Counted from the first letter of the stretch, positions 1,000 through 61,247 are shown. The stretch: DNA of 61,671 bases from Rickettsiales bacterium (GCA_023301245.1 JALZUV010000044.1:1-61671), one strand, 5' to 3'. Numbers and translations are program-made. Notes: generated by a model not told the origin, from the letters alone.

Positions 1000-1028
1000 T
1001 TGCCGTCTTCGCAAACGTTTGCTATATT
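1000..1028 (+). promoter_or_regulatory. sigma70-like promoter TTGCCG-17-TATATT with the palindrome in the spacer
   Basis: -35 at 1000-1005 and -10 at 1023-1028. TGCTATATT also reads as an extended -10. Confidence 0.45.
1011..1022. repeat. GCAAACGTTTGC palindrome copy 1 (intergenic, in promoter spacer)
   Basis: Exact 12/12 match; flanks tc/ta. Confidence 0.95.
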
Positions 1029-1080
1029 AACTTACGAACCGCGAAACGGCAAACCTGCTTAATACGCTAAAGGATAAAGC

Positions 1081-1419
1081 ATGACTTTCGACAATTTTCC
1101 TATTACCCAGAACGACACTAATCGGATTACGCCCCCTGTCAAACTCGTGCACAACATATACCAGCATTGGCGCAATAAAAAATACTACATCATTGACGAC
1201 TTCGCTTGGAACGGCGACGACGATACGTGGATGGTGGTTCACCGCGAGGTAGAGAACTTCGAAGGTACGGGAGCCATGGTAACGGGCAAGCGCATCTTCG
1301 TGAGATCAGTTCCGAACTTCTTCGGGGACGTAGCGGGACGCGGGGACAAGGCGGGGACCTTAATCAAGCGCAACGAATTACGTCTAGACGCCAACGGACA
1401 GAAACCGACCACAGCGTGA
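1081..1419 (+). CDS. hypothetical protein
   Basis: 112-aa ORF with AAAGGATAAAGC upstream of the ATG. No motif recognised. Confidence 0.5.
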   Translation: MTFDNFPITQNDTNRITPPVKLVHNIYQHWRNKKYYIIDDFAWNGDDDTWMVVHREVENFEGTGAMVTGKRIFVRSVPNFFGDVAGRGDKAGTLIKRNELRLDANGQKPTTA

Positions 1420-1423
1420 AACT

Positions 1424-1903
1424 ATGTCAAATATAAACAACCACATTCTCGTACCTGTGATAGACGCGGAAAACGTAGGCCCTATAACCAGCTTTGAATT
1501 TAACAAAACCGTAAAGGCACATGATGCGGTCATGCTACCCGCGTATCAGGTCAAAGGCTTCGGACGGTCTTTAAAGTGGGGTCGGGCATCTCTTATACTA
1601 CACGGAGATAGCGATTTCCTAGGTCGGGTATTATCAACCACAGCGCGCGTACGAGACCAAGGGCAAATACCTTACGGTTATGTTATGTGCGAACATTCTT
1701 TACGGTCCCTTAGGCGTGACGCTTGGGGAGCTGTAACCTACGGACCCAACGCAGACCAAGTTAACCTCATGGGGTTGCCCGTCGAGACTATACGCAACAT
1801 GCGCTTCCCACAGATCGTTGTCTTACACAGCAACAGACCAAAAGACCTTAACCGCGATAACGTGGAAGCGGAGAGAAGGATAATACAAGATGTACGTCGA
1901 TGA
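1424..1903 (+). CDS. hypothetical protein
   Basis: 159-aa ORF, tightly packed after the previous gene. Confidence 0.5.
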   Translation: MSNINNHILVPVIDAENVGPITSFEFNKTVKAHDAVMLPAYQVKGFGRSLKWGRASLILHGDSDFLGRVLSTTARVRDQGQIPYGYVMCEHSLRSLRRDAWGAVTYGPNADQVNLMGLPVETIRNMRFPQIVVLHSNRPKDLNRDNVEAERRIIQDVRR

Positions 1904-2225: not shown

Positions 2226-2226
2226 C

Positions 2227-3818: not shown

Positions 3819-4226
3819 GTAATAACCTCACATGTAAAACTACTGGAAATTCTGATGTTTGATACACAATTTATTGGCGCAGCCGCCGTTGTCCTCTTCG
3901 CTTGGTTAGGTATGGAGATGCACATACCCGACAGCTTCCCGCTAGTGGCGGCGGCGACACTAGGCTCTTTATCCTCCGCTACGATACGAATACAAGAAGG
4001 TTATATAAAAGGGTTCTGGCCTACCCTACTAGCCTTCATTACTGGGCTAGCTTTTGGGTGGTTCGTGGGGAAGAACATAGGACCTCTAGTAGGATTTGAC
4101 GGAACTGCATTGGCACTGCCCATCTTCATAACAGCTACCTTTGGCGCAAAAGCAGTACATTACTTATCCACTAAATTTGACATAGCATCGGTTATAGATG
4201 GTATAGCTATCAGGCTTAAAAAATAG
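3810..4226 (+). CDS. multi-pass membrane protein (possible holin; start may be 3855)
   Basis: 3-4 hydrophobic helices (FIGAAAVVLFAWLGM, FPLVAAATLGSLS, FWPTLLAFITGLAFGWFVG, ALALPIFITATFGA). ATG 3810 is buried in a 10-bp inverted repeat. Confidence 0.5.
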   Translation: MWPVITSHVKLLEILMFDTQFIGAAAVVLFAWLGMEMHIPDSFPLVAAATLGSLSSATIRIQEGYIKGFWPTLLAFITGLAFGWFVGKNIGPLVGFDGTALALPIFITATFGAKAVHYLSTKFDIASVIDGIAIRLKK

Positions 4227-4237
4227 CAAACGTTTGC
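4226..4237. repeat. palindrome copy 3 (starts on last base of stop codon)
   Basis: Exact match. Confidence 0.95.
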
Positions 4238-4308: not shown

Positions 4309-4551
4309 ATGTCACGTATGTCACAACTCAACGAAGCCGATAAACTCCTTGGAGCACGGGTCCGTAAACAACGTGAAATCGCGGGCATGACTATGCAAGC
4401 TCTCGCAGACACCATAGGCAAAACGCAGCCTTACATCTCTCGCCTAGAGGCGGGAAAATATAAACTCAAACTAACGATGGCGGCAAAGATCGCTAAAGCA
4501 TTAGGTGTAACTCTCGACGAACTAGCAGAACCGATAATGGAGCTAACATGA
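4309..4551 (+). CDS. XRE-family helix-turn-helix transcriptional regulator
   Basis: LGARVRKQREIAGMTMQALADTIGKTQPYISRLEAGKYKLKLTMAAKIAKALGV is a canonical HTH_3 (Cro/C1-type) domain. Confidence 0.9.
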   Translation: MSRMSQLNEADKLLGARVRKQREIAGMTMQALADTIGKTQPYISRLEAGKYKLKLTMAAKIAKALGVTLDELAEPIMELT

Positions 4552-5321: not shown

Positions 5322-5333
5322 GCAAACGTTTGC
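5322..5333. repeat. palindrome copy 4 (intergenic, starts immediately after the stop codon, 12 nt before next ATG)
   Basis: Exact match; 20-bp palindrome CTAAGCAAACGTTTGCTAAG-like flanks. Confidence 0.95.
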
Positions 5334-6854: not shown

Positions 6855-6866
6855 GCAAACGTTTGC
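6855..6866. repeat. palindrome copy 5 (intergenic after amidase)
   Basis: Exact match. Confidence 0.95.
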
Positions 6867-7832: not shown

Positions 7833-7859
7833 ACCTGTAATTTGCCACTTGGAGTAACC

Positions 7860-9446
7860 ATGGCTCGTAAGAAAAAAGACCCGAAGAAGCTAACGCGGGG
7901 CGAAGTATACCGACCTAGACTACGTATAGTTATAGACCCGATATACGTACAGATCGCGAACCTTTCATCCAGTTCGACCTACCACAAATACGTTACGTTA
8001 GTACGAGAGCTAGCGGCGCGCGGGCATTTCATTTATTGGTCAGTACCCGATGCGGAATACGTACCCAATGAAGTAGAGAGTTTGCCGAACGTAGGTATTG
8101 TGCGGACTAGCAGCATTCAAGACCAGTTCGTAATCGACGGCGTACAAACCGACCAGTTCTTTAACCTATTCAACCGTACAGGGGGCAAGTTCCACGCGGA
8201 TGTCGTATGTACTTCTCGTAACAGTCTCGCCCTTACCTATAAGCGTCAACTTGACCCGCCGCGCTTCCATGACAACAAAGGCGAATACACCGACAAGTCC
8301 TATGGCATGCCCTTGGTACTTATCGAAGAGTTCCCGCAAACACCTGAGCGTCAACACACGGGGGAAGCCTATTGGTTATCCCAAGTCCTAGGATACTACG
8401 CAGCGGACAAGACCGTTTTCCTATCCGACCATAACCGTAGCGAAGTCGTCAAAGCCATGATGCCCTTCGTCACAAACAGCGTAGTACGGGACTTTACGGA
8501 ACGTGCCAAGGTCATACCCGCAGGTATAGAACGTGAAGAACTTGATAAGATATACAAGCCTAACCGCTGGAAGGTAGAAGACGGCTTCAACGTGCTATGC
8601 GTCGGGCGCATATTCGGGCCTTCCTACATTGAGTACCTAGAATGGTTTAACCACTTCTTTAAGATAGGTAATGAGGCCACACTGACGGTTTCCCTGTCTG
8701 GTAAGTTCTCTGGGCCAATGAAGAAAAAGCTGCGTAAGATAGGTTTCGATTACGACAACAACATCGGTAGGCAGTTCAAAATCATTGAGAACAATAACCG
8801 TAAGAACTTCCTAAAGATGCTGCAAAAGTATCAGGCCTTCGTATGCCCACTATCTCACTTGGACCACCCCACGGGGTTATTCGAGTGCATTTACCTTGGA
8901 CTTCCGGGAGTTATACCCGTTTCAGACTATCAACAAACGTTCTTCTCCGATTGGCCATGGGTTATAGACCCTCGCGATAAGGTCGGCCTCATAGCCATGC
9001 TTAAGGACATACAGGCGGACCCCCAAGCTGCTCGCGATAAAGTCCTCCCATGGCGGGAACGGATTGCGGACCTATACGACGCACCGACTAACATCAAAGT
9101 CCTAGCGGACGTTATCGAGAACGTAGCAAGAAAAAAATCAGACTATTTCCGCACGTCTCGCGGCGTCATCGACATCTGCAAAGAGATGAAGGGCAAAGAG
9201 TACGGCTGGGCGGACGCATTCGCCTATACCAAGACAGCTGGTACAATGGGCGTCAGCGTCGGGGACATGTCTATGCGGACAACCTTCACCTACGGGAGAG
9301 GGACCCTAAACCACGCCATGCACTGCGCGGGTTATGTAGACGACTGTAAAGGACCCATGGAAAACTTCGTTAGGGCAGATGTATTCGATGCCCGTCACGG
9401 CGGTAAGAAACGTCGCAAACGTTTGCGTAAGAGGAAATCAAAATGA
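7860..9446 (+). CDS. GT-B fold glycosyltransferase-like protein with polybasic termini
   Basis: N-terminal Rossmann-like half (VIDPIYVQIANLSSSS...LARGHFIYW). C-terminal half VLCVGRIFG...GLFECIYLGLPGVIP resembles the GT1/GT4 E-x7-E region. Ends HGGKKRRKRLRKRKSK. Confidence 0.45.
   Translation: MARKKKDPKKLTRGEVYRPRLRIVIDPIYVQIANLSSSSTYHKYVTLVRELAARGHFIYWSVPDAEYVPNEVESLPNVGIVRTSSIQDQFVIDGVQTDQFFNLFNRTGGKFHADVVCTSRNSLALTYKRQLDPPRFHDNKGEYTDKSYGMPLVLIEEFPQTPERQHTGEAYWLSQVLGYYAADKTVFLSDHNRSEVVKAMMPFVTNSVVRDFTERAKVIPAGIEREELDKIYKPNRWKVEDGFNVLCVGRIFGPSYIEYLEWFNHFFKIGNEATLTVSLSGKFSGPMKKKLRKIGFDYDNNIGRQFKIIENNNRKNFLKMLQKYQAFVCPLSHLDHPTGLFECIYLGLPGVIPVSDYQQTFFSDWPWVIDPRDKVGLIAMLKDIQADPQAARDKVLPWRERIADLYDAPTNIKVLADVIENVARKKSDYFRTSRGVIDICKEMKGKEYGWADAFAYTKTAGTMGVSVGDMSMRTTFTYGRGTLNHAMHCAGYVDDCKGPMENFVRADVFDARHGGKKRRKRLRKRKSK
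9415..9426. repeat. palindrome copy 6 (in CDS, 20 nt before stop; RKRL)
   Basis: Exact match. Confidence 0.95.
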
Positions 9447-10982: not shown

Positions 10983-13083
10983 ACTCGTAAAGAACAATCG
11001 GCCTGCCTTAGTAGCGACACCTCGCAAACGTTTGCTAAAGCCTAAACGCCGCAAGCTCATACGACCTACACCTAGGTTCGAACCTCGCGAAGACTTATCC
11101 GTAGACGAGCAAATCCACATACTGCTAGAGACAATCGTTGCCGAGGTATCGGAAATCGACGACCCAGAGCACGCGACTATGTGGTTGGATGCGTTAGAGA
11201 ACTTCCAGCGTTCGGGCGACGTAGAGGACCTTATGAAGGTCACCGAGTGGAAGCGTCCCGTCGTACCCCTCGAAGAGTTTATGTTCTCGTCTGCCTACCT
11301 TGGGCTACAGCAAAGCCAGATATACCCCTCCGTCGTAGAGACTGCTCACCACCTAGACGACGGCGACTATCGGGAAGCTGTATTCAAGGGGGCCTTGGGT
11401 ACGGGTAAGACCACGCTCGGCAACATTATGATGGCGCGGGACGTATACAAAATATCGTGTATGAGATCGCCGCAAACATCCTTTGGTATCCAAGCCAAAT
11501 CATCTATCGTATTCACCATCCAGTCCGTCCGCCTAGGTACAGCGAAAAAAGCCGTCTTTGACGAGCTGGGACACTATATGCGAAGTTCTCCGTACTTTAT
11601 GCAGAAGTATCCATATAACCCTAACGTCACGTCAGAGATGCGCTTCGAAAGCCAGAACGTCCGTATCATCCCTGTGTCATCATCCAATACAGCGGTTATC
11701 TCTATGAACGTCATCGGCGGACAACTGGACGAAATGAACTTCATGCAGAAGACGACAAACTCAAAGCATCAAAACGCAGATGACGCGGGTAAGTTCGACC
11801 AAGCCAAGGCCTTATACAACACACTGTCCCGTCGTAAGAAATCTCGTTTCGCGAATAAGGGTAAGTTGCCGGGAACCTTGTACTTGATTTCATCTTCTCG
11901 CTTCCCAGATGACTTTACCGAGCTTAAAGCCGCAGAGAGCACAATGATGGGCGGAGACGACCCAAGCATATACGTGTACTCACATAGCCAATGGTCTGCT
12001 AAGGGCCGAGATGCCTTTATGGACGAAGACTTTCAAATGCAGGTCGGTAACGACAGGTATCGTTCACGCGCTCTAGACGAAGACGAAGAGCCAGACATAG
12101 GGTGCGAAACCATACCCGTGCCTATGGACTTCCATTCGGAATTCGTAAAAGACCCAGACGGCTCGCTACGTGACTTCGCGGGCCTCACAACACTGTCTAC
12201 AAATCCCTTCTTTAACCAGCGCCACTTCATTGACCAATCCATGCGGGAAGCACAGAAGCACGGATACGAAAACCCATTCGCCATGGAGCAAGTGGATTTA
12301 ACTATCGGTCTGCCTACGCCTGACGCAACCAAGCTACGGACGGACGTACCAAGTGAGCGCCATTGCCATATTGACTTGGGGCTATCTCGCGATGCTTGTG
12401 GATTTGCCGTAGGGCATTTGGCAGGGCATAAAATCATACAGACGGTAGACCCTGTAACCAAGCAACGACGCTATGACATCAAACCTATAATCGCGTACGA
12501 TGTCATCATGCGTATCCTGCCGCCCCCTAACGGTGAGATACAGATATCCGATGTACGAAAGCTGCTAACAAATCTTAACGACTTGTACGGCCTCAACATA
12601 ACGTCGGTAACAACCGATGGCTTCCAATCAACAGACACGCGCCAGATACTAAAACGTCGCGGGTTCAAGACGGGCTACCAATCAGTAGAGAAAGTCGAGC
12701 CTTGGCGCTCATTCAGGGAGGCCCTATATGATGGCCGCATCCTCATGTCCCCTAACCAGCATGCGAAGAAAGAGCTGGTCGAGCTTGAGACCTCAATAAA
12801 GAACAACAAAGAAAAGGTAGATCACAGCCCGAACGGTACGAAAGACGTTGCCGACGCTATTGTAGGTGTAGCCAATCATATCTTAAGACAAAAGGTTTCA
12901 TGGAACCCTTCGGTTATTGACGGAGGAACTTCTGGTACATTCTTGCTAGGTACTCTATCCGAAGAGGAACTATCGGAAATGAAAGAGAACGAAACCGACG
13001 ATGGTAACCGACGTATTAACCGACGCCCACGGCCAAAAAGAAAGCGGGCTATCCGACGTAAGCGGGTATCAAGGAAAGCTTAA
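10972..13083 (+). CDS. terL: terminase large subunit
   Basis: Walker A FKGALGTGKTTLG, Walker B IGGQLDEMNF, and a C-terminal RNase-H-like nuclease region (HIDLGLSRDACGFAVGH...TTDGFQS...DHSPNGTKDVADA). Polybasic N- and C-terminal extensions. Confidence 0.85.
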   Translation: MALKLVKNNRPALVATPRKRLLKPKRRKLIRPTPRFEPREDLSVDEQIHILLETIVAEVSEIDDPEHATMWLDALENFQRSGDVEDLMKVTEWKRPVVPLEEFMFSSAYLGLQQSQIYPSVVETAHHLDDGDYREAVFKGALGTGKTTLGNIMMARDVYKISCMRSPQTSFGIQAKSSIVFTIQSVRLGTAKKAVFDELGHYMRSSPYFMQKYPYNPNVTSEMRFESQNVRIIPVSSSNTAVISMNVIGGQLDEMNFMQKTTNSKHQNADDAGKFDQAKALYNTLSRRKKSRFANKGKLPGTLYLISSSRFPDDFTELKAAESTMMGGDDPSIYVYSHSQWSAKGRDAFMDEDFQMQVGNDRYRSRALDEDEEPDIGCETIPVPMDFHSEFVKDPDGSLRDFAGLTTLSTNPFFNQRHFIDQSMREAQKHGYENPFAMEQVDLTIGLPTPDATKLRTDVPSERHCHIDLGLSRDACGFAVGHLAGHKIIQTVDPVTKQRRYDIKPIIAYDVIMRILPPPNGEIQISDVRKLLTNLNDLYGLNITSVTTDGFQSTDTRQILKRRGFKTGYQSVEKVEPWRSFREALYDGRILMSPNQHAKKELVELETSIKNNKEKVDHSPNGTKDVADAIVGVANHILRQKVSWNPSVIDGGTSGTFLLGTLSEEELSEMKENETDDGNRRINRRPRPKRKRAIRRKRVSRKA
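11024..11035. repeat. palindrome copy 7 (TerL codons ~18-22; RKRL)
   Basis: Exact match. Confidence 0.95.
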
Positions 13084-13091: not shown

Positions 13092-13103
13092 GCAAAACGT
13101 TGC
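13092..13103. repeat. degenerate palindrome variant GCAAAACGTTGC overlapping a -35 box
   Basis: One-base shift relative to the consensus. Same placement relative to TTGCTT as copy 21. Confidence 0.6.
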
Positions 13104-13128
13104 TTAGCGGGGGGTTACGTGCTATACT
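13100..13128 (+). promoter_or_regulatory. sigma70-like promoter TTGCTT-17-TATACT after TerL
   Basis: -35 at 13100-13105 and -10 at 13123-13128. Overlaps the degenerate palindrome. Confidence 0.55.
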
Positions 13129-14765: not shown

Positions 14766-16493
14766 ATGGCTAAGAAATTAAAAAAAACCCTACGAAAGAC
14801 AACGCCGACTAGAACGGCTAAACCCCAACGAAGGGCGCGTAAAATAACCAGTAAACGACAGGGCTATGCAGCCCCGTTTATGGCGACTGTTACTAAGAAC
14901 GGGAACAGCAAACAACTCGTAGACCCCTTTGAAAGTAACTACGGCCTCACGCGTGGTCATAAGAAAATCCTCACACCGATGTATACGCCTCAGACACTTG
15001 TAAAAGTGGCTTTGGGGTCCAGTGTTTTAAAGCAATGTATTGAAGCTTATCGCGTCAACATTGAGAGCTACGGACACACACTGGAATACATCGGGGAAGA
15101 CGGACAAGAGGACCGACCTGAGGTCAAGAAAGAGAAGCGTAACCTTGAGAGCTTCCTACGGTTCCCCTCCAACGACACATCCACCCTGCAAGAGATACGC
15201 GAGAAGAGCCGTGTAGATAAAGAGATCACAGGTGCACGGTACTTTGAGATATCCCGTAACCAGCGGGGCGAGATAGTTCTATTCACAGACGCCGCCAGCG
15301 CAACTATGCGTATGACCGTAAAGGACGCGGAGCCTACTGACTTCACAATCAAGGTGCCAGACACGGATGGCGACGGCTGGATGGATAAGGACGTATGTAA
15401 ATCATTTAGGCGCTTCGTACAGATAGGCAAGTCAAACAAGAAAGTATTCTTTAAGGAATTCGGCGACCCGCGCCCTATCGACCCTAAGGACGGACGGGTA
15501 AATGACAGCCTCGATATTGAGGACCAAGCTACTGAAATCTACATGGACGCAATCTATATGCCAGCAAGCCCGTACGGCGTACCTCGCTGGATTGGCGCAC
15601 TAGCAGCTATCCTAGGCGCACGGGAAAGTGAACTTGTAAACCTAAACTTCTTTAGAGAGAACGCCATCCCAGCCATGGCCGTGCTCATATCGGGGGGCAT
15701 GCTCACAGAAGACAGCTTCGATAAAATATCAGATTACATAACTGCGTCCAAAGGACAGGACAGCATGAACCGCGTAATCGTGCTAGAAGCAAGTTCCGAC
15801 GATACGCAAGGGACCATCGACCAGCACCCGCCCGCACCCCAGATCAAAATGGAACCTATGTCGGATAAGCGCCAGTCCGAGGGCATGTTCGGCGTATATG
15901 AGGAAAGCGGGACTAAAAAGGTTCGCTCTACCATGCGCCTGCCCCCTATTCATATAGGCCTAGCGGAGGAATACACGAAAGCAACAGCCGCTGCCTCTCA
16001 GCGCGTAGCGGAGCTACAGGTATTCCACCCCGAACGCACAAGCTTCGATAACTTTATAAATAACAAGGTTATAAGCACCTACGAGCCTCAGTATTACCGC
16101 TTCAAGACCTTGGGGCCACAAATCAACGACCCAGACAGCTTGTCCCGTATGCTCGACACGTTCCACAGGACGGGGGGCCTAACACCTAACATAGTTATCA
16201 AGCTGGCTAATGCTATGCTAGACGTGCACATAGAAAAGGTTAAGGATGAATGGGGCGACCTACCTATCCAGTTCACTAGCCAAGCCCTTATGAACGGCGC
16301 GGACGTTAAAGGATTAGAGGACTTCACAAACCCCTTGAAAGATTTAGAGGACGATGATAGTGAGGACGATGATAACCCTGTAAATGACAATGTTGCCGCC
16401 ATGGTTAGGCGTGTAATCCGTAAAGAACTCCACACCATTGCGACGGAACTAGACGACCTCCGTTCGCAAACGTTTGCAAATTCTGACGGATAG
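14766..16493 (+). CDS. portal protein
   Basis: 575 aa, located between the terminase and the protease/scaffold/capsid genes. Acidic C-terminal region; polybasic N-terminus MAKKLKKTLRK...RRARK. Confidence 0.75.
   Translation: MAKKLKKTLRKTTPTRTAKPQRRARKITSKRQGYAAPFMATVTKNGNSKQLVDPFESNYGLTRGHKKILTPMYTPQTLVKVALGSSVLKQCIEAYRVNIESYGHTLEYIGEDGQEDRPEVKKEKRNLESFLRFPSNDTSTLQEIREKSRVDKEITGARYFEISRNQRGEIVLFTDAASATMRMTVKDAEPTDFTIKVPDTDGDGWMDKDVCKSFRRFVQIGKSNKKVFFKEFGDPRPIDPKDGRVNDSLDIEDQATEIYMDAIYMPASPYGVPRWIGALAAILGARESELVNLNFFRENAIPAMAVLISGGMLTEDSFDKISDYITASKGQDSMNRVIVLEASSDDTQGTIDQHPPAPQIKMEPMSDKRQSEGMFGVYEESGTKKVRSTMRLPPIHIGLAEEYTKATAAASQRVAELQVFHPERTSFDNFINNKVISTYEPQYYRFKTLGPQINDPDSLSRMLDTFHRTGGLTPNIVIKLANAMLDVHIEKVKDEWGDLPIQFTSQALMNGADVKGLEDFTNPLKDLEDDDSEDDDNPVNDNVAAMVRRVIRKELHTIATELDDLRSQTFANSDG
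16466..16477. repeat. palindrome copy 9 (portal, 16 nt before stop; SQTFA)
   Basis: Exact match. Confidence 0.95.
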
Positions 16494-24043: not shown

Positions 24044-24055
24044 GCAAACGTTTGC
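24044..24055. repeat. palindrome copy 12 (intergenic before chaperone gene)
   Basis: Exact match. Confidence 0.95.
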
Positions 24056-42319: not shown

Positions 42320-42331
42320 GCAAACGTTTGC
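42320..42331. repeat. palindrome copy 18 (intergenic)
   Basis: Exact match. Confidence 0.95.
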
Positions 42332-42988: not shown

Positions 42989-43000
42989 GCAAACGTTTGC
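42989..43000. repeat. palindrome copy 19 (intergenic)
   Basis: Exact match. Confidence 0.95.
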
Positions 43001-43586: not shown

Positions 43587-43598
43587 GCAAACGTTTGC
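43587..43598. repeat. palindrome copy 20 (intergenic, 3 nt before a terminator hairpin)
   Basis: Exact match. Confidence 0.95.
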
Positions 43599-45289: not shown

Positions 45290-45322
45290 TACCCCGTCTG
45301 TAATAGGATGGGGTATTTTTTT
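45290..45322 (+). terminator. intrinsic terminator
   Basis: TACCCCGTC-N8-GATGGGGTA followed by TTTTTTT. Confidence 0.7.
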
Positions 45323-45327: not shown

Positions 45328-45339
45328 GCAAACGTTTGC
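45328..45339. repeat. palindrome copy 21 (intergenic, overlaps -35 box)
   Basis: Exact match. Confidence 0.95.
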
Positions 45340-45364
45340 TTAGCCGTGGAATATGCGCTATATA
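45336..45364 (+). promoter_or_regulatory. sigma70-like promoter TTGCTT-17-TATATA(AT) upstream of the AAA+ gene
   Basis: The -35 box is formed by the 3' end of palindrome copy 21. Confidence 0.55.
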
Positions 45365-47118: not shown

Positions 47119-47127
47119 GAGCTAGAC

Positions 47128-47766: not shown

Positions 47767-47782
47767 CTTTAGGAGCAATAGC

Positions 47783-48253: not shown

Positions 48254-48259
48254 ACCCTC

Positions 48260-48271
48260 GCAAACGTTTGC
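48260..48271. repeat. palindrome copy 22 (intergenic)
   Basis: Exact match. Confidence 0.95.
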
Positions 48272-48293
48272 GAACACAGTATAGGAGGCCATC

Positions 48294-49572: not shown

Positions 49573-49998
49573 ATGGACCGCATGGTAATATCGGTAGGGA
49601 TAAACGGGGATGCCCAACACCTACTCAAAGATAGTTTCTTAAACCCGTTCCCCTCGTCTACACGGGAGATAGATCGGATATCAAACATAGTATTTAATGC
49701 GCCGTCGCAAACGTTTGGTATACAACTGCTAGGCAATCTAGCTAAATGGAACGACACCGACTTGGGGTACGAGCCTACACTCACACAAGATAATATGAAG
49801 GCTTGCCTCTGCGACATGCACGAAAGCGGTATAGGCAGTTATCTATCTTGCATGAAAAAATTCTATGAGCTGGAAGGTGAGCATAACGAAGAGGCTATTT
49901 GGTACATGAGATTTTCTTCTTATGAAAACGCCGTAGCTATAGAGGTTGAATTTATAAACAACCTTAGACTTTGCGGCTACAAGTTTAGGGCGATATAA
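49573..49998 (+). CDS. hypothetical protein
   Basis: ATG 49573 has an AGGAG SD. The upstream part of track ORF 49468.. lies in a promoter/hairpin leader. Confidence 0.5.
   Translation: MDRMVISVGINGDAQHLLKDSFLNPFPSSTREIDRISNIVFNAPSQTFGIQLLGNLAKWNDTDLGYEPTLTQDNMKACLCDMHESGIGSYLSCMKKFYELEGEHNEEAIWYMRFSSYENAVAIEVEFINNLRLCGYKFRAI
49707..49718. repeat. degenerate palindrome variant GCAAACGTTTGG (in CDS; SQTFG)
   Basis: 11/12 match. Confidence 0.6.
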
Positions 49999-51847: not shown

Positions 51848-53170
51848 ATGGTTAAAAGAACCGACGCGGAACTATTCAGCGCACTCGTTACGCGTGGTAG
51901 TAAATCCGACGTACTCAAACTACCCGACGTACTCGTGATGGACCCTGACGCCAGAGAGATCATGCAATGGCTTAAGGCATACGTCACAGACTACCGACGT
52001 GTGCCGTCCGCTAAGATTATGAAACGACAGACGGGGTTTAAAGCCGTCGAGGTATCGGAGGGCGTCAGCTACTACCAAGACGAAGCTCGCAAACGTTTGC
52101 TATATACGGAATTCCTAGGACCGTTCGGCGACCTGCGAGATGCCATGGCGGACAAATCCCCTGAGGAAGTCGTCTTGCTAGCCCGCCAGATTATCGGGAT
52201 ATACCAAACCACAGCCGCCAGAGACGACGGGATAGCAGCCCTATACGACGTGGCCCGTGACGTTGTGGCGGATTATCATATCGCCCGACATACGGTAGGC
52301 TTACGGGGAACTTCCAGCGGTTGGACATGGATGGACGAACAAACAGACGGTTTCCAAAAGGGCGACCTCATAACATTCGTTGGTAGGCCGGGGGTAGGCA
52401 AGTCAACCTTGCTTCTATACACCGCACTGCACTCATGGTTATCAGGCAACTCGGTCCTATTCCTATCCATGGAGATGCCAGCCCTACAACTCGTGCGTCG
52501 TTTCATTGGTCTATGGACGGGTATCAACCCCCAGCTTATTAAGCGGGGTAGGCTATCTACGGACGCTAGGGACTTTATGACTAGCAGCATCGAAGGGATA
52601 CCTGACATGCCAGAGTTCCGTATCATGGCGGGTAACTTCCGTAAGTCGGTTGGGTCACTCCGCGCCGCTGCCGAAGAGATGGAACCCGACGAAATAGACG
52701 CAGACGCGTCCTACCTTATCCAGCCCGATAGCAAGGCCAACAACAAAGCGTCTCGTAGGGAAAACGCAGCGGACACCATTGAGGGTCTAAAAATGCTAGC
52801 ACTAGACTTGGACAGACCACTTAAGCAATCCGTACAGTTTAATCGCGCTGCCACTAAGCCCAAGTCATCTGGCACAGAGAACGCAAACCCCGTGGCACAT
52901 CTAGGACTAGACAAGATCGGTGAAACCGACGTCATCGGGCAATCATCGTCTATCGTAGTCGGTATCGAAACAGGCGACCCGCCGCATGCTCACTCAGAAA
53001 GATACCTCGGAATTCTCAAAGGAAGGGAAGGAGAATTCGGTTGGATGAAAATTAACTACCAATTCCAGCCTGCAAACTTTTCGCAGATTACGACAAGCGC
53101 AGAAGCTAATCGACCTGCATTAACTGGGACCCGTCCCGTAGACCTCTCACACATGGACAGCGTAGCATAA
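51848..53170 (+). CDS. dnaB: replicative DNA helicase (DnaB family)
   Basis: Walker A FVGRPGVGKSTLLLYTA, then VLFLSMEMPALQLVRRFIG, a RecA-like C-terminal domain, and an N-terminal helical domain. Confidence 0.85.
   Translation: MVKRTDAELFSALVTRGSKSDVLKLPDVLVMDPDAREIMQWLKAYVTDYRRVPSAKIMKRQTGFKAVEVSEGVSYYQDEARKRLLYTEFLGPFGDLRDAMADKSPEEVVLLARQIIGIYQTTAARDDGIAALYDVARDVVADYHIARHTVGLRGTSSGWTWMDEQTDGFQKGDLITFVGRPGVGKSTLLLYTALHSWLSGNSVLFLSMEMPALQLVRRFIGLWTGINPQLIKRGRLSTDARDFMTSSIEGIPDMPEFRIMAGNFRKSVGSLRAAAEEMEPDEIDADASYLIQPDSKANNKASRRENAADTIEGLKMLALDLDRPLKQSVQFNRAATKPKSSGTENANPVAHLGLDKIGETDVIGQSSSIVVGIETGDPPHAHSERYLGILKGREGEFGWMKINYQFQPANFSQITTSAEANRPALTGTRPVDLSHMDSVA
52089..52100. repeat. palindrome copy 23 (DnaB; RKRL)
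   Basis: Exact match. Confidence 0.95.
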
Positions 53171-55938
53171 TGACAAAACGTAAAGTAAAAAAAGATAAGC
53201 GCGGTTCCAAGAAAATGCCTGAGGGTGTTTTGTGGTTCGGGGACTTGAACGCTAATACAGTATTCGTAGTGGATACCATCGTAGGGCGGGAAGAGGACGG
53301 CGACGAAGCACCTAAGACAACCAAACCCCTCAGTAAAGCGAACTTGTCTTTCTTCTCGCGCTTCCTAAAAGAGGCCAAGATTAAAAAGTCGGACCTCGCC
53401 ATCGTGTGTTGCGCACCGCCTGTAACTGCGGACATGTGGCAACGGGGCAAAGCCATGGGGGACCATCTCAAAGCTCATAGAGCCGCATTCGTAGAAGCCA
53501 TAGAGCTAATAGACCCCAAGCTTATCGTACCCATGGGAAAGTACCCAGCCACGCAAGTCGCGGGACGTTCAGTTGCCATCACCAAAGTACGGGGACTACC
53601 AACACACAACGAAGCGTGGAACCGCGTTGTCATGCCAGCCTTCGGCGTTAACCACGTCCGACGTATCCCAGACAATGAAGCCCTATTCCGTAACGACATG
53701 TTGACCGTGGGAAATCTCGTATCGACAAACTACAGCATCGACTACGAAGAAGAGATCGAAACGGATTACAGGTATTGCACGGACATCAGCTTCTTACTGA
53801 AAAACCCACCCAAGGACCTATGCGTAGATTGCGAGTGGACGGGGGGTGAATGGTTCCAGCCCAAGTCAAAACTCCTAACGGTACAGCTCACATGGGAAGA
53901 AGGGAAAGCCGTCTCCATACCTATCAACTACCCACGCTACGAACGGGAAGTACAGAAGCTTACCAAGAAAGATAAAGCCCGTATCAAGGCACAGCTCAAA
54001 AAACTGCTAGAGAACAAAAAGGTTCGAGTGTTCGGGCATAACTACAAGGCCGATTATTTATACCTACTAGGCAAGCTAGGTATAGACACCGCCACATTCT
54101 CAGACGACACAATGCTCATGGTGCATATGCACGACGAGAACATGCTCTCCAAATCTTTGACAGATTGCATACGACGTTTCGTGCCAGCCATGTCGGGCTA
54201 CTCTGATGACTTTGACCGAGACCCTATCCATCAAGGTAAATCCCGTATGGACCTCGTGGACCCACAAGACATGATGATGTACGGCTGTGGCGATACGGAT
54301 GCGACCTTCCGACTGTGGGCGCACATGCGGGCCTTGCTTAAAAAGGACAAGAACCTCTACCGCTGCTATAAGCGTGTAAAGATGCCAGCCACCCGCTCGT
54401 TCTGTAAGATTGAACAATCAGGCTTCGACGTTAGCAAACGTTTGCTAAGTACATTCGAGACGAAAATTAGGAAGCATCAAAACGCAGAATATGCGCGTCT
54501 AGTCGCCATGGTTCCTTCTCACATACGTAAGGAATACCTAGAAGACAGCGGCAACCCCTCTATCACTCGTGGGGCCTTCCTTATCAGGTTCCTATTCGGT
54601 AAAAAGAGCACGGGGGGCCTAGGATTTAAGCCACGCGTATTCACTAAGTCTACCAAGATGCTCAAAGATAAAAACATGCGCGTGCCGTCTACATCAACTA
54701 AAGACCACTTCCCGTACTTTCTAGGGGAGCACCCTTTCATCGAAGGCATTATTGACTTCGTTAAGAACGAGAAAATGCTAGGCACGTACGTCGGCAGTGA
54801 GAGGGACAATACAGGCTTCTACAAATACATCTTTGACGATAAAATTAGACCTTCCTACCTCCTGCATCGCACAGTCACGGGCCGTACAGCGTCCGCTAAT
54901 CCGAACGGGCAGAACTTCCCTAAACGCGGCATGTTCGCAAAAGATTATCGCAAAATCTTTATTGCGCCACGCGGCTATTGTCTAGTCGAGGTCGATTACT
55001 CACAAGTAGAACTACGTATCGCGGCCATGATGGCAAACGAACCGACCATGCTGGAAATCTATGCAAGGAACGGGGACATTCATGCGGCAACCGCTGCGAA
55101 AACCATGGGCGTAACCCTCGAAGAGTTTATGAAGCTGCCGAAGAAAGAGCGGGGCTTCAAACGGTTCCAAGCCAAGGCGATTAACTTCGGCTTCCTATAC
55201 GGCATGTGGTGGAAATCATTTATTGTGTACGCCAAGACGGACTACGGTATCGACTTCACGGAAGAGGAAGCACAGAAAATCCGTAATGACTTCTTCGACC
55301 TCTATAAGAACCTAGAGCCATGGCATGCGGCGGTTAAAGACTTCGTGAACACCAATGGTTACGTTAAATCTTATGACGGCGGTATCCGTCACTTGCCTAA
55401 CATCTTCTCGCCAGAGCAAAGCATCGCTAAGATGGCCGAGCGCCAAGCGGTTAACTCGCCTGTCCAAGCCCAAGCGTCTAACCTTGGCCTAATAGCCATG
55501 GCCCGCATACAGCGCTATGTCGACCCTGAGCTTGTGGACATCAAAGGGTTCATCCATGATGCGCTTATCTGCCTCGTACCCGAGGACAGAGCCATAGAAG
55601 CTATCCTTGAGATCAAAAAGCAAATGGAGAACTTGCCCCTCAAAGAGATGTTCGGATGGCAACCAAGTATCCCACTTATGGCGGAAGCAGAAATCGGCAA
55701 GAACCTTTCCCAAATGGTCGAGGTCGAGCATAGCTGGTACAAGGACAAGAACATCAAAAGCTATCAGGACATACTCATAGCCGAGTGGAAAGCTGAGTGC
55801 GACGAAGCTAAGGCCGAGGGTAAGCGACCACCTCGTATGCCTAAGGTATTAGTGGACGGATATAAGCACCCAGAACCCGAACGGACTGTTAAGCCGAAAC
55901 AAGTAAAACGAAGGAAAAGGAAGCTCGTTCTCGCTTGA
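53170..55938 (+). CDS. polA: family A DNA polymerase with N-terminal UDG-like domain and 3'-5' exonuclease
   Basis: Exo I VDCEWTG, Exo II HNYKADYLYL, Exo III YGCGDTDATFRL. Pol motif A LVEVDYSQVELRIAA, motif B RFQAKAINFGFLYGM, motif C GFIHDALI. The first ~190 aa are family-4 UDG-like. Confidence 0.95.
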   Translation: MTKRKVKKDKRGSKKMPEGVLWFGDLNANTVFVVDTIVGREEDGDEAPKTTKPLSKANLSFFSRFLKEAKIKKSDLAIVCCAPPVTADMWQRGKAMGDHLKAHRAAFVEAIELIDPKLIVPMGKYPATQVAGRSVAITKVRGLPTHNEAWNRVVMPAFGVNHVRRIPDNEALFRNDMLTVGNLVSTNYSIDYEEEIETDYRYCTDISFLLKNPPKDLCVDCEWTGGEWFQPKSKLLTVQLTWEEGKAVSIPINYPRYEREVQKLTKKDKARIKAQLKKLLENKKVRVFGHNYKADYLYLLGKLGIDTATFSDDTMLMVHMHDENMLSKSLTDCIRRFVPAMSGYSDDFDRDPIHQGKSRMDLVDPQDMMMYGCGDTDATFRLWAHMRALLKKDKNLYRCYKRVKMPATRSFCKIEQSGFDVSKRLLSTFETKIRKHQNAEYARLVAMVPSHIRKEYLEDSGNPSITRGAFLIRFLFGKKSTGGLGFKPRVFTKSTKMLKDKNMRVPSTSTKDHFPYFLGEHPFIEGIIDFVKNEKMLGTYVGSERDNTGFYKYIFDDKIRPSYLLHRTVTGRTASANPNGQNFPKRGMFAKDYRKIFIAPRGYCLVEVDYSQVELRIAAMMANEPTMLEIYARNGDIHAATAAKTMGVTLEEFMKLPKKERGFKRFQAKAINFGFLYGMWWKSFIVYAKTDYGIDFTEEEAQKIRNDFFDLYKNLEPWHAAVKDFVNTNGYVKSYDGGIRHLPNIFSPEQSIAKMAERQAVNSPVQAQASNLGLIAMARIQRYVDPELVDIKGFIHDALICLVPEDRAIEAILEIKKQMENLPLKEMFGWQPSIPLMAEAEIGKNLSQMVEVEHSWYKDKNIKSYQDILIAEWKAECDEAKAEGKRPPRMPKVLVDGYKHPEPERTVKPKQVKRRKRKLVLA
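54434..54445. repeat. palindrome copy 24 (PolA; SKRLL)
   Basis: Exact match; 18-bp palindrome TTAGCAAACGTTTGCTAA. Confidence 0.95.
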
Positions 55939-56605: not shown

Positions 56606-57096
56606 TGAGCGATAAACCCGACCTGTCCGTTATGTTTTCCGATGCGTTCGCTGACGACGCAGAAGTTCCCATAAATATAAACTTGCCAGCGATAGGCACA
56701 AGCCACGTCATAGGCTATCTAACCGATGACGAGATCGCAGCTTTCAAAGATATCATGGCGTCAATGGACACTATAGAAACTTTGCTGGACGAACTAGACG
56801 ATACTGAGGCCGCAATGTATAACCGTCTTGTGTCCAGCCCGCCCCCTGCGGAGATAGGCACAGCCCTGATACACCTTATGGGACGGAACCCCCAAGAGTA
56901 TGCCCGCGTCATATCTTGTAAGGACCGCGTTATCGCCGCCAAGGAGGCCGCAGCAAAGCACACCATGCTCTACTCCGTGTTTTGGTATCAGCTTCGCAAA
57001 CGTTTGCAAAACGTTAAAAACTCTAGCCTCACTATTCGGGAAGGCTACACTATCTGCGACGTCGGCCCATGGATAAAACTGTCGAAAGACTTCTAA
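56605..57096 (+). CDS. hypothetical acidic protein
   Basis: 163 aa. ATG overlaps the previous stop. Confidence 0.5.
   Translation: MSDKPDLSVMFSDAFADDAEVPININLPAIGTSHVIGYLTDDEIAAFKDIMASMDTIETLLDELDDTEAAMYNRLVSSPPPAEIGTALIHLMGRNPQEYARVISCKDRVIAAKEAAAKHTMLYSVFWYQLRKRLQNVKNSSLTIREGYTICDVGPWIKLSKDF
56996..57007. repeat. palindrome copy 25 (in CDS; RKRLQ)
   Basis: Exact match. Confidence 0.95.
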
Positions 57097-58273: not shown

Positions 58274-58291
58274 AACATATAGGAAACCGTA

Positions 58292-59188
58292 ATGGCCATT
58301 AAGAAACGCCCATCGTCTAAAGCCGCTCTAAAGAGCAAATCGTCCAAGCGAAAAAAGCCTAAGGTCGAAGAAGAGGACGTAAAGTCCAAAAAGAAAAAGC
58401 CCAAAAAGTCCAAGGACAAATCAGCGAAGTCCCGCAAGGACAGTAAATCCCCAAAGCGTTCGCGCGGCTCCAAAGACAGCCCATTCGGCGGCGCTCGTAA
58501 AGAGAAAGCCCGCAGAGATAAAGAGCGAGAAACACGCAACAACAAACCGTTCGACTTCTACATAAAGGACGGAGAAAAAGCCAAGTATTACATCCTCGAC
58601 GATGGCGAGCCTTACACAGGGTACGAACATAGTCGGTATAATCCGAACCTACGCAAAGGTGCACGTCAGCAAGACCCAGTACCTTGTATCAAGGAGCGGG
58701 ATATCTGCCCCGCTTGTGAAGCGGACGGTAAAGAGGGTTACTGGTTCATGGCGGTTACTGTCGTTGTCGTATCTGCCACGGGCATGGATAGTAAATACAA
58801 ATACCGCAAAAAGCTTATGAAGATTAAGTCCGGCTCGGCCCCCAAGTTCGAACGCTTGTATGCCAAGAAAGGAAGCTTCCGTGGTATGATGCTAGAGGTC
58901 GCGCGTGACGGTGATAAGTCACCGAGTATCGGCAACGACATCGACTTCGTGGAATTCCTCTCCGAAGCTAAGATGAAAAAGCTTGCAGCCAAATACAACG
59001 TTAAGGACAAAAAGGGCAACGTTGTATCGGACATCACAAAAGCTACTGATTACAAGAAAGCTTTCCCTAAGCTTTCCCGTAAGGAACTTGAAAAACTTTA
59101 TGGCCGTACAAGCGGCGGAGCTTTGGGTGAAGAGGACTTCGGCGACGACGAAGACGACGACGATTACGCCCTCGACCTTGACGATTAA
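58292..59188 (+). CDS. putative ssDNA-binding protein (gp32-like layout) with ~85-aa polybasic N-terminal extension and acidic C-tail
   Basis: FYIKDGEKAKYYIL...YEHSRY...PCIKERDICPACEADGKEGYWFMAVTVVVV resembles the T4 gp32 His/Cys3 Zn region. The tail EEDFGDDEDDDDYALDLDD is typical of phage SSBs. Confidence 0.45.
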   Translation: MAIKKRPSSKAALKSKSSKRKKPKVEEEDVKSKKKKPKKSKDKSAKSRKDSKSPKRSRGSKDSPFGGARKEKARRDKERETRNNKPFDFYIKDGEKAKYYILDDGEPYTGYEHSRYNPNLRKGARQQDPVPCIKERDICPACEADGKEGYWFMAVTVVVVSATGMDSKYKYRKKLMKIKSGSAPKFERLYAKKGSFRGMMLEVARDGDKSPSIGNDIDFVEFLSEAKMKKLAAKYNVKDKKGNVVSDITKATDYKKAFPKLSRKELEKLYGRTSGGALGEEDFGDDEDDDDYALDLDD

Positions 59189-59194
59189 CGTGCA

Positions 59195-60829
59195 GTGAAG
59201 CCGTCAATACAATACCACCCGACGAAGCGGGGCAGGTTGCCTATAGTTAGCTCTATGGTCTACCTGCCTTGTAGTCATGTCCGTAACATCCCCGAGCTTA
59301 TAAAATACCTAACGGTAGAGTATAACCCAAACGTGGACGGACAGGACGGGGAGCCTGAGTATATCCGACTGTATGACCTCCAAACACACAAAGGCTATAT
59401 AGGCTTGCCTAGAGCTTTCGCTACAGAGCAGCTTAGCAAACGTTTGCTTCATTACATGGACCACACGATTAAGCCCACAAAGAAATTCAAATACCCTGCC
59501 AAGATTACGCCACGCGATAAGCAACAGGCGGAATTCATGGAAGACCTGCAACGGGCTTGCACCGAGCATAAACTAGGTGCCGTGGACTTTAGCGCTAAAG
59601 CCAAGACGGGCGCGGGTAAAACAGTCTCACTACTCAAAACGATAGCTGACATGGGCATAGGCCCCGTTCTATTCCTCGTGCATATCAACAGCCTTAAACG
59701 ACAATGGGTTGGGGACGTTAAAAAGAAAAATGGTATCAAGTATTTTTTCGGTAAAAAGTGGACCAAGAAAAACGTAGGTATCGTACAGCAAGACATTTGT
59801 GATTATAAAGGAAAAAGCTTGGTAGTCGGTATGCTACCATCTATAGCGAGAAGAGATTATGGCGAAGATTTTTACAATAACTTTACTGCTGTGTTTTGGG
59901 ATGAATTACACAAATCCGCAGCCCCTATGCTATCTAAGACGCTATCAATGTTCCCAGCGGCAATACGCGGCGGTGTTACGGCTACACCGAGAGAGGGCGC
60001 TTTATCGCGGGTCACAAATACCCACCTAGGCTCTGTATCTATAATCTCCGAACAGGACGTAATGTCGCCTAAGGTTATCCGTGTACGCCTAAAGCCGTCA
60101 GAGCCTACGAAGCTCAACACCTTCAACAAGTATACGATAATAACATCCCTCACACGCTGGGACGCCCGACAAAAGCTACTCACCAAGATCATAAAGAAAC
60201 ATGGATACGATAATGGCCGACAGGTTCTAGCCTTATCTGATAGGACAGCCCAGCTAGCGGATATTCGACGCAGGCTTATTGCGCAGGGCGTACCACAAAG
60301 CGAGATAGGTCTATACGTGGGGTCCTATGATACGGGAAACTATATCGTCAGACGGCGGGGACCAGACAGTAGCCGTCACATAAAGGTTAAAGACGAAAGC
60401 TTCACAAGCAAGTACAAGGCCCAAAAGTATATAAAAGCACAAGACGACGATGCCGATTATATTATAGACAACGAAATACACTCTCCGAGCATTAAAGAGC
60501 TTGAACGTATATCTAAAAGATGCTCTATAGTTTTGGCCACCTATGGCATATTCGATACAGGCGTCGATATACCTAGACTGGACATGGGGGTAGAATGCAG
60601 CCCCCGTGGAAACGTAACGCAAGCGCTTGGACGGGTCCTACGCCTGCTAAAAGGAAAGGATACACCTACTTGGTGGACTATAGACGACGTTCTACATACT
60701 CTGGACGACAAAGGTGCCGTAGAGTGGTTCGAACAGTTTATACAAGCCAGTAATGCACGTACGAGGTCTTATACAGAGCAGAAAGCTGAAATCTCTCGTA
60801 CTTCGGTGAAAATAAAGAACAATGACTAA
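59195..60829 (+). CDS. superfamily 2 (DEAD/DEAH-like) helicase
   Basis: Motif I AKTGAGKT, motif II WDELH, motif III VTATP, motif V ATYGIFDTGVDIP, motif VI QALGRVLR. GTG start (uncertain). Confidence 0.8.
   Translation: MKPSIQYHPTKRGRLPIVSSMVYLPCSHVRNIPELIKYLTVEYNPNVDGQDGEPEYIRLYDLQTHKGYIGLPRAFATEQLSKRLLHYMDHTIKPTKKFKYPAKITPRDKQQAEFMEDLQRACTEHKLGAVDFSAKAKTGAGKTVSLLKTIADMGIGPVLFLVHINSLKRQWVGDVKKKNGIKYFFGKKWTKKNVGIVQQDICDYKGKSLVVGMLPSIARRDYGEDFYNNFTAVFWDELHKSAAPMLSKTLSMFPAAIRGGVTATPREGALSRVTNTHLGSVSIISEQDVMSPKVIRVRLKPSEPTKLNTFNKYTIITSLTRWDARQKLLTKIIKKHGYDNGRQVLALSDRTAQLADIRRRLIAQGVPQSEIGLYVGSYDTGNYIVRRRGPDSSRHIKVKDESFTSKYKAQKYIKAQDDDADYIIDNEIHSPSIKELERISKRCSIVLATYGIFDTGVDIPRLDMGVECSPRGNVTQALGRVLRLLKGKDTPTWWTIDDVLHTLDDKGAVEWFEQFIQASNARTRSYTEQKAEISRTSVKIKNND
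59436..59447. repeat. palindrome copy 26 (SF2 helicase; SKRLL)
   Basis: Exact match. Confidence 0.95.
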
Positions 60830-61247
60830 ACGGAAACTTAAACTTCGCAAACGTTTGCAAAGCACTGAGAAGCGGCCTAAGCAACGTAAATCACTTTCTA
60901 TCGACCCCCTGTCTAACAAGCACCGTATAAAGGACATCGCAGTCTCACGGCTCGTAACCCTGCCCAGCGGCAAGGAACGCAATCTACTGACGTTTAGTAA
61001 GAACGAACTCGCGGAACTCATGGACACGTCCTATATGAGTATAGATCGCTGGGTTGCTAAGGGCCAAATACCTGCCCCCGTTCTAGTTTGCGGAAAGAAG
61101 ACTTATTGGTGTATAAACGAAGCCCTAGCCATTCTCGAACCTGTCGGGAAGCACTTGCGCACCTCCTCCTATTATACTACAAACGATATAAGCGTTCGGG
61201 ACAGTATATCTCGGCGCGTATCAACAGTAAGAGCCACTACTCATTAG
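60822..61247 (+). CDS. putative DNA-binding protein (AlpA/excisionase-type HTH)
   Basis: ELMDTSYMSIDRWVAKGQIPAPVLVCGKKTYWCINEALAIL resembles MerR/AlpA-type HTH_17. N-terminus MTKRKLKLRKRLQSTEKRPKQRK. Confidence 0.45.
   Translation: MTKRKLKLRKRLQSTEKRPKQRKSLSIDPLSNKHRIKDIAVSRLVTLPSGKERNLLTFSKNELAELMDTSYMSIDRWVAKGQIPAPVLVCGKKTYWCINEALAILEPVGKHLRTSSYYTTNDISVRDSISRRVSTVRATTH
60847..60858. repeat. palindrome copy 27 (25 nt into HTH gene; RKRLQ)
   Basis: Exact match. Confidence 0.95.

Follow-up and report, generated by a model that had tools for sequence, protein, structure and literature searches.

The 61,671-base stretch of DNA analyzed here (the window; Rickettsiales bacterium, GCA_023301245.1, JALZUV010000044.1:1-61671) resembles a complete siphophage genome in which approximately all genes lie on the + strand. 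A + strand gene map built for this work is 95% coding and includes a packaging cassette, portal, tape-measure and J-like genes, and DnaB-like, PolA, and helicase genes. Dispersed among them are 27 exact copies of the palindrome GCAAACGTTTGC, as compared with an average of 0.10 (maximum of 1) in dinucleotide-preserving shuffles. All 27 lie where a first-pass annotation of this DNA had placed them, and the signal is stronger than it had stated. Near-misses consist of a single copy with one mismatch (position 49707) and two copies with two mismatches, which is chance level (2.5 expected); therefore, conservation of the 12-mer is all-or-none.

When the copies are aligned, the motif lengthens to a dyad of 18 bp, TT(C/A)GCAAACGTTTGC(G/T/A)AA, the flanks of which are themselves symmetric, with T at −2 mirrored by A at +2, G never found at −1, and C never found at +1. 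As far as the sequence goes, this symmetry points to a dimer acting on duplex DNA. The core, including its central CG step, is identical to that of the E. coli PurR operator (PMC3159470). The sole one-mismatch copy, GCAAACGTTTGG, lies between 48260 and 52089, which is the replication half's second-largest gap, and may be a decaying or nascent site.

Even spacing is the strongest signal of the array. At a density of 0.44 sites per kb, or approximately one per 2.3 kb, the gaps have a coefficient of variation (CV) of 0.41, as compared with 0.97 when sites are placed at random. They range from 598 nt (85 nt at random) to 4033 nt (mean largest gap at random, 8885 nt), and such regularity was not reached in any of 100,000 random placements. 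The base farthest from any copy is 2016 nt away, and for 94% of the genome the nearest copy is no more than 1.5 kb distant. The eight copies located deep within genes fall at 0.48–0.63 of the interval between their neighbors (P = 2e-5), and the 9.4-kb J-like gene is split by its copies into four pieces of 1.8–2.6 kb.

With respect to genes, the first-pass annotation had sorted the copies into ten that are intergenic, nine close to a start or stop codon, and eight in long genes, and the independent gene map returns the same three sets. Ten copies are intergenic (that at 4226 shares one base with a stop codon), nine are separated from a start or stop codon by 11–105 nt, and the other eight are in genes of 1.3–9.4 kb. 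Only 1.16 intergenic copies are expected (binomial P = 9e-8). Thirteen of the 27 are centered within 30 nt of a stop codon (1.8 expected; P = 5e-9), and 18 lie within 110 nt of a gene boundary (8.0 expected; P = 7e-5). The boundary enrichment that had been claimed is significant under circular shifts that preserve the spacing (P ~3e-4), and base composition is no explanation for it because only 0.1 copies are expected genome-wide. Eight of the ten intergenic copies start no more than 12 nt past the upstream stop codon; those outside the promoter-like overlaps are 7–86 nt from the next start, with no fixed geometry. The other 17 copies (63%) are intragenic, several of them within the coding sequence of Lys/Arg-rich protein tails and translated there as RKRL. 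Given this stop-proximal, intergenic, and basic-tail placement, the sites occupy the cheapest positions available, namely gene ends and basic protein tails.

Selection on the sites is very strong and acts on the DNA itself. The intragenic copies use all three reading frames (ANVC, (R/S)KRL, and SQTFA), which rules out a conserved peptide motif. The copies in PolA and DnaB align to homologues without indels; thus, they originated by substitution and not by insertion, which rules out a mobile mini-element (REP/MITE-like), with the caveat that a common origin is possible for two of the three copies in the J-like gene, the A/S/T-rich repeats around which are partly similar. The earlier proposal that a spacing rule is enforced at a cost to protein sequence is borne out by the even gaps, the midpoint placement, the use of three frames, and the substitution origin.

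Three hexamer pairs resembling promoters overlap the copies at 1011 and 45328 and the degenerate copy at 13092, as had been described. The operator-like placement ascribed to them fits at most 1011 (predicted promoter spacer), 45328 (predicted −35 box), and 13092, and not the array as a whole, because 17 copies are intragenic, the geometry is not fixed, copies are placed just after stop codons, and the copy upstream of the XRE gene is off the promoter-like element. The latter copy lies approximately 24 nt upstream of a promoter-like TTGCAT-17-TAYCTT that is conserved in the relative L142, and does not overlap it. Operator action at the two perfect copies and the degenerate one is plausible from their sequence context. 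In a generic sigma-70 scan, only the pair at 1000–1028 passes, the sole one of the three coinciding with a copy; match counts in the generic sigma-70 and terminator scans equal those of shuffled sequence, and one overlap with a palindrome is, by our own estimate, about what chance gives. On the + strand there are three matches to TTGC-N19-TATAYT (1000, 13100, and 57897; 0.3 expected), a pattern that may represent a promoter class of the phage's own, 57897–57925 included. Its copy at 57897 lies inside the primase gene, and the element at 45336 is a close variant. Strong intrinsic-terminator-like hairpins with T-runs are found on the + strand at 20190–20211, 45290–45315, and 49445–49482, and that at 45290 directly precedes copy 21 and the replication module.

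Comparison with relatives shows that the sites are kept in position while the surrounding DNA diverges. In L019, whose major capsid protein is 93% identical to that of the window (DNA 72–75%), all six sites within 13.8 kb are exact and their flanks have diverged. The same is true of L019 and L142 taken together, with DNA 72–75% and proteins 60–93% identical to the window. In L142/L143 (ParB-like protein 73% identical), nine corresponding sites are kept and the site at 5322 is missing; therefore, sites turn over. More distant relatives, whose replication and packaging genes are 25–68% identical, each harbor a dyad of their own. Such dyads occur at 0.2–0.7 per kb in approximately two dozen related contigs, in a relative from a Bradyrhizobium assembly, and in the cultured phages RcTiptonus and JP1, with spacing sub-random in most. 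They include TTGMTAACGTTAKCAA, CGMTAACGTTAKCG, TTGCAGGWWCCTGCAA, TGCAGGTACCTGCA, and TRCAATCGATTGCA, as well as variants with a variable center. Most are built on (TT)GCA-N6-TGC(AA), and the TAAC classes have GMT in place of GCA. Judged by these sequence comparisons, the array is a family-wide, co-evolving architecture, which was not visible to the first-pass annotation.

The independently annotated Rhodobacter phage RcTiptonus (94 kb) carries 38 copies of CAATCGATTG, of which 20 are intergenic (3.2 expected), with a gap CV of 0.64 (P < 0.001). Agrobacterium phage JP1 has eight copies of TTGCAAACGTTTGCAA in 24 kb. The Bradyrhizobium relative, L173 (GCA_040547745.1), has a full packaging cassette and 13 dyad sites in 21.6 kb; since it lies inside a 295-kb bacterial contig, some members of the group may be prophages, temperate, or plasmid-like. 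In L146 and L151, the dyad TTGCAGGWWCCTGCAA has a non-palindromic center (AA or TT), the orientation of which switches in blocks along the genome, a hint that orientation may matter in this lineage. The paper describing the RcF cluster, to which the Rhodobacter phage relatives belong, makes no mention of palindromes (PMC8601537). Our literature searches for evenly spaced phage palindromes and for phage JP1 returned nothing.

Pfam and PHROG scans, which covered the 50 non-tail proteins of the window, yield two clear DNA-binding candidates: an XRE/Cro-type helix-turn-helix (HTH) protein (4309–4551) and an orphan ParB-like protein (gp9443, 9443–10342). gp9443 matches Pfam PF02195 with an E value of 3.9e-5 and 24.1 bits, just below the curated cutoff of 26.3, and PF02195 is precomputed on 34 of 34 of its homologues among the matches listed; it also matches phrog_26387 at 8e-42. 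Its family profile aligns with residues 16–177 of Noc, including the HTH (E = 5e-11), which is the best sequence-profile match. An AF2 model (predicted local distance difference test, pLDDT, 78) has helices at 147–154 and 159–170, and Foldseek matches this model to ParB, Noc, and KorB at E values of 4e-7 to 3e-5 over 187–231 columns, the matched structures lacking the C-terminal domain. gp9443 is thus predicted to carry the ParB N-terminal fold and a central HTH related by homology to the one in ParB/Noc.

Of the genes that the related loci have in common, the one for gp9443 alone encodes a recognized DNA-binding fold; the corresponding proteins of the cultured phages are RcTiptonus gp23 and JP1_007. 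The XRE protein is detectable in the closest relative only, among the loci fetched, and its similarity to RcTiptonus gp125 (28% identity, E = 0.011) is generic. A dyad site lies 25–36 nt upstream of the ParB-like start in the window (28 nt), L142, L145, L148, and L151, and none lies just upstream of this gene in L144, L146, L147, L150, JP1, or RcTiptonus. A single-protein scan of viral contigs returned no ParB-like relatives, while an alignment-based scan did find them; a scan of a genome collection gave only N-domain matches in Planctomycetota metagenome-assembled genomes, which are not relevant. A ParABS partition system was considered and rejected, as no ParA/Soj-type partition ATPase, the required partner, was found among the 50 scanned proteins, whose sole ATPase of ParA-like size is an AAA protein (PF00004).

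The ParB-like gene is part of a cassette (7473–13083) found in all relatives, which encodes a SLOG/YAcAr (DprA-like) protein, a glycosyltransferase-like protein, the ParB-like protein, an HTH protein of approximately 200 amino acids, and the terminase. The HTH protein of the cassette may be the small terminase subunit, and an HTH-like segment is recognizable by eye in gp10197-10982. Terminase homologues carry PF27249 (MJ0330_N). The glycosyltransferase-like protein is 51–87% identical across the group, above the terminase, portal, and capsid; every homologue has a Lys/Arg-rich tail, and the ParB-like gene always adjoins it. The protein itself has no Pfam or PHROG match, and a few of its homologues, which number more than 120 and in many cases sit on long contigs, carry PF00534. 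A search of solved structures with the glycosyltransferase-like and terminase proteins found nothing.

The reading that we favor, tentatively and at somewhat short of an even chance, is that the palindromes are high-affinity sites for a phage-encoded dimeric binder, probably gp9443, which loads on the phage DNA and spreads over it. The sites, kept at approximately one per 2.3 kb and never more than some 4 kb apart, would place the whole chromosome within reach. By analogy with ParB, Noc, and KorB, each palindrome would be a loading point from which gp9443 spreads or slides over 1–2 kb, and the resulting coat would silence or organize all of the phage DNA and the phage DNA alone, with two or three promoter-overlapping sites possibly doubling as true operators. 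The drift of the dyad by lineage within one architecture argues for a phage-encoded, co-evolving dimer rather than a decoy for a host PurR.

The link between gp9443 and the dyad is circumstantial, and several observations weigh against it. Dispersed dyads are not detectable in the relatives L160, L161, and L162, which have a ParB-like homologue (ParB box SGEHRYKA) and whose glycosyltransferase-like, ParB-like, and terminase genes are 40–57% identical, nor in the 24 kb examined of Arthrobacter phage KellEzio, which also encodes such a homologue. The nucleotide-binding box of gp9443 reads SGHHRLKA instead of GERRxRA, making clamp behavior uncertain; the G, the second R, and the A are kept, H stands in place of the E and the first R, and GHHR is invariant across 29 aligned homologues. 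The residues that open the putative recognition helix do not follow the dyad in a simple manner: JP1 has TKEAAF with GCAAAC, L153 has TKEDAF with GCAGGT, and L158 and L144 both have TEKKAF yet differ in their dyads. Identity in the DNA-binding domain tracks dyad class no better than identity in the N-terminal domain. The ParB-like gene is placed in the glycosyltransferase–terminase cassette and not in a regulatory region, and certain ParB-like proteins of phages instead activate DNA-modifying enzymes (PMC13229309). The derived dyad classes correspond to approximately one clade each on the ParB tree (the GG-type L149 falls outside), as would be expected for any phage gene.

It is also conceivable, albeit unlikely, that the palindromes are operators and roadblocks of a small phage repressor, either the XRE protein or another HTH protein, which silences a genome transcribed from one strand in the manner of stoperators. 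Such a dimer would shut the promoters that it overlaps and elsewhere block elongating RNA polymerase. This would be in keeping with all genes lying on one strand, the two perfect copies that overlap promoter-like pairs, the copy 71 nt upstream of the XRE gene and its retention in L142, a density resembling that of stoperators, the RcTiptonus “immunity repressor” encoded near a cluster of three sites, and the relative inside the Bradyrhizobium contig, given which some members may be temperate. However, the XRE protein is confined to the closest relative among the fetched loci and its likeness to gp125 is generic, the scanned proteins yielded neither an integrase nor a partition ATPase, and midpoint placement inside genes is not obviously needed for roadblocking. 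Stoperators are asymmetric and oriented with transcription, whereas the site here is a perfect palindrome. We regard as improbable a role of the sites as entry points for post-replicative hypermodification, with the ParB-like protein activating the adjacent glycosyltransferase or another enzyme, or carrying it along phage DNA only. The glycosyltransferase-like gene, which immediately precedes the ParB-like gene, is the most conserved one and always encodes a basic tail, and a weak MazG-like match is present at 390–998. Phage thymine dioxygenases have glycosyltransferases, ParBs, and terminases as their commonest neighbors, and activator function is proven for one ParB, but the characterized activator ParBs have no DNA-binding domain (PMC13229309), while gp9443 is predicted to have one. 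Moreover, among the scanned proteins there was no dioxygenase, hydroxymethylase, or DNA methyltransferase, and the glycosyltransferase could equally act on virion proteins.

The location of the ParB-like gene in the terminase cassette of all relatives and the HTH-like segment of gp10197-10982 raise the idea of packaging sites, bound by a small terminase-like HTH protein or by the ParB-like protein as a “nuclease” with the terminase. This is very unlikely, as pac calls for one site rather than an even array of 27, a genome cut at palindromes 2.3 kb apart would be destroyed, and RcF phages have a defined P1-type headful start (PMC8601537). A decoy that titrates a host LacI-family, PurR-like repressor and thereby derepresses nucleotide synthesis was our first idea, suggested by the identity of the 12-mer to the PurR box core (PMC3159470) and by the ability of multicopy sites to titrate PurR (PMC3266220), and was dropped once relatives showed different dyads. 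A host would dictate one site, whereas the dyad changes clade by clade with architecture, density, and spacing held constant. A decoy needs copy number and requires neither even spacing nor midpoint placement. The cultured relatives infect alphaproteobacteria (Rhodobacter, Agrobacterium), where PurR of the enterobacterial type is not known to serve as purine regulator. With T at −2 and A at +2, the outer flanks also reverse the E. coli PurR consensus. We give a decoy even less credence than packaging sites and consider the resemblance to PurR chance or convergent. The least probable reading is that the palindromes act in RNA, as hairpins in polycistronic mRNA that process or stabilize upstream cistrons. 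It would explain the clustering at gene ends, with 13 copies within 30 nt of a stop codon and every copy transcribed in the sense direction, and complementarity at −1/+1 is slightly high (14 copies, 9.6 expected). However, the 12-mer alone gives a stem of only 4 bp, its loop bases ACGT are also invariant, and relatives vary the center and fix the outer half-sites, which is the signature of a protein dimer and not of a stem. A conserved hairpin was rejected on account of the 13 of 27 copies in which pairing, and hence stem extension, at −1/+1 is impossible and by the absence of covariation at −4/+4.

Among known systems, the nearest precedent in kind is the repeats of Cluster O mycobacteriophages, while KorB on plasmid RK2 offers the best mechanistic analogy for the proposed loading and spreading by gp9443. 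Cluster O phages (Corndog and its relatives) harbor more than 30 invariant 17-bp dyad repeats, a ParB-like protein, and an AAA ATPase, with no parA or integrase (PMC4351075). The likeness to the window covers an invariant dyad in many copies (at least 30) in a siphophage genome of 60–70 kb, the placement of many copies between genes or at gene ends with a substantial share within genes, the location of most copies off promoters, and the combination of a ParB-like protein and an AAA ATPase without parA or integrase; for the Cluster O repeats, too, a dimeric binder is predicted. The match is in kind only, since the Cluster O repeat has another sequence, TGTTCGGNNNCCGAACA, and comes from an unrelated phage lineage in an unrelated host phylum. 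In Cluster O the repeats are denser toward one genome end and not even, about one third of the copies are coding as compared with 63% here, and replacement of the dyad from lineage to lineage has not been described.

KorB is a ParB-fold protein that acts from palindromes dispersed over a replicon of approximately 60 kb, some at promoters and others far away, and it slides to promoters up to 1.5 kb distant (PMC11790492). This range fits half the spacing of the present array, and the predicted structure of gp9443 matches KorB (8qa8/8qa9). In contrast, KorB acts with KorA and with IncC (a ParA), neither of which was identified here, and the GERRxRA box is altered in gp9443. RK2 has about a dozen KorB sites, as compared with 27 palindromes in the window. 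Noc is also an orphan ParB paralogue without ParA that spreads from many dispersed palindromes, in this case on the Bacillus chromosome. Its tethering of DNA to the membrane and blocking of division have no evident relevance to a phage, and its sites are not known to be evenly spaced. Cluster A stoperators, which are bound by the repressor L5 gp71, are numerous and distributed across the genome (PMC9283540), with operator and non-promoter roles in whole-genome silencing; they are 13-bp, asymmetric, transcription-oriented, and monomer-bound, and belong to clearly temperate phages. The sites here are perfect palindromes and are mostly intragenic. PurR/LacI operators share the core GCAAACGTTTGC, but their regulon has no counterpart to the spacing, and the dyad here drifts with phage lineage.

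Dispersed dyad repeats have been known since 2015 in one mycobacteriophage cluster, without explanation. The present analysis adds the same kind of array in a much larger phage group with cultured, tractable members (the Rhodobacter RcF cluster and Agrobacterium JP1), a rule of even spacing strong enough to push sites into essential genes, and the presence of an orphan ParB-like protein beside the repeats in both this group and Cluster O. The outcome is a testable hypothesis on orphan phage ParB-fold proteins, in which one sequence-specific protein would address a whole viral chromosome; if the spacing reflects the range of spreading, it is a natural measurement of that range. A broader proposal, which we consider possible but doubtful, is that in a large, mostly uncultured siphophage clade the sites form a “ruler” along the entire chromosome, on which an orphan ParB-fold clamp loads. 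As the sites are confined to phage DNA, the clamp would mark this DNA as self, and Cluster O would have converged on the same solution. The clamp might serve genome-wide silencing, condensation into a compartment for replication or packaging, or hypermodification via the adjacent glycosyltransferase. If true, the 2–4 kb spacing would be a direct readout of the sliding range of the clamp in vivo.

Table 1. Palindrome copies, promoter-like elements, and candidate genes in the window (aa, amino acids)
Feature	Coordinates	Strand	Context
Copy 1	1011..1022		Intergenic, inside the 17-nt spacer of TTGCCG/TATATT
Copy 2	2196..2207		Gene 1890-2225, 18 nt before stop; frame ANVC
Copy 3	4226..4237		Intergenic, first base is last base of stop codon; XRE HTH gene 71 nt downstream; same position in L142
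Copy 4	5322..5333		Intergenic, immediately 3′ of stop codon, next start 12 nt on; absent from L142
Copy 5	6855..6866		Intergenic, 3′ of amidase gene; retained in L142
Copy 6	9415..9426		Basic C-terminal tail of glycosyltransferase-like gene; ParB-like start 28 nt downstream
Copy 7	11024..11035		Terminase large-subunit gene, 52 nt in (basic N-terminus)
Copy 8	13763..13774		Gene 13147-13785, stop 11 nt downstream
Copy 9	16466..16477		Portal gene, stop 16 nt downstream
Copy 10	18246..18257		Within scaffold-like gene 17122-18609
Copy 11	20068..20079		Gene 19779-20162, stop 83 nt downstream
Copy 12	24044..24055		Intergenic, stop codon 3 nt upstream
Copy 13	27208..27219		Tape-measure gene, exact middle: 2239 nt from start, 2243 from stop
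Copy 14	30638..30649		Gene 30533-31309, 105 nt in
Copy 15	34671..34682		9.4-kb J-like gene
Copy 16	37275..37286		J-like gene, in A/S/T-rich repeat
Copy 17	39681..39692		J-like gene, in A/S/T-rich repeat partly similar to that of copy 16
Copy 18	42320..42331		Intergenic, start codon 7 nt downstream
Copy 19	42989..43000		Intergenic
Copy 20	43587..43598		Intergenic, followed by hairpin and T-run
Copy 21	45328..45339		Intergenic, just 3′ of terminator 45290-45315; last four bases open TTGCTT of promoter-like pair upstream of AAA ATPase gene
Copy 22	48260..48271		Intergenic, stop codon 6 nt upstream
One-mismatch copy GCAAACGTTTGG	49707..49718		Within gene 49573-49998, in 3.8-kb gap between copies 22 and 23
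Copy 23	52089..52100		DnaB-like gene; by substitution (homologue alignment without indel)
Copy 24	54434..54445		Mid PolA gene; by substitution, variable segment
Copy 25	56996..57007		Gene 56605-57096, stop 89 nt downstream
Copy 26	59436..59447		Helicase gene
Copy 27	60847..60858		Gene 60822-61247, 25 nt in; product excisionase-type HTH by eye, no family match
Degenerate copy GCAAAACGTTGC	13092..13103		Intergenic, overlaps TTGCTT of promoter-like pair 13100-13128
Promoter-like TTGCCG-17-TATATT	1000..1028	+	Sequence prediction
Promoter-like TTGCTT-17-TATACT	13100..13128	+	Sequence prediction
Promoter-like TTGCTT-17-TATATA	45336..45364	+	Sequence prediction; downstream of strong terminator
XRE/Cro-type HTH protein, 80 aa	4309..4551	+	Alternative candidate binder
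Glycosyltransferase-like protein, 528 aa	7860..9446	+	Most conserved gene of the group
Orphan ParB/Noc/KorB-like protein, 299 aa	9443..10342	+	Prime candidate binder

A search of a phage database with the window returned no near-identical or close phage, and no tRNA genes were found in the window. Strand asymmetry is strong (A 29.5%, T 20.5%), the coding strand being A-rich. The AAA (PF00004) ATPase, of 572 amino acids, is followed by DUF1257 and DUF2997 proteins (45400–48494) and is kept in those relatives whose fetched loci include this region. The J-like gene contains A/S/T-rich internal repeats (36100–40000), and identical small hairpin sequences are present at 36126–36141 and 36357–36372.

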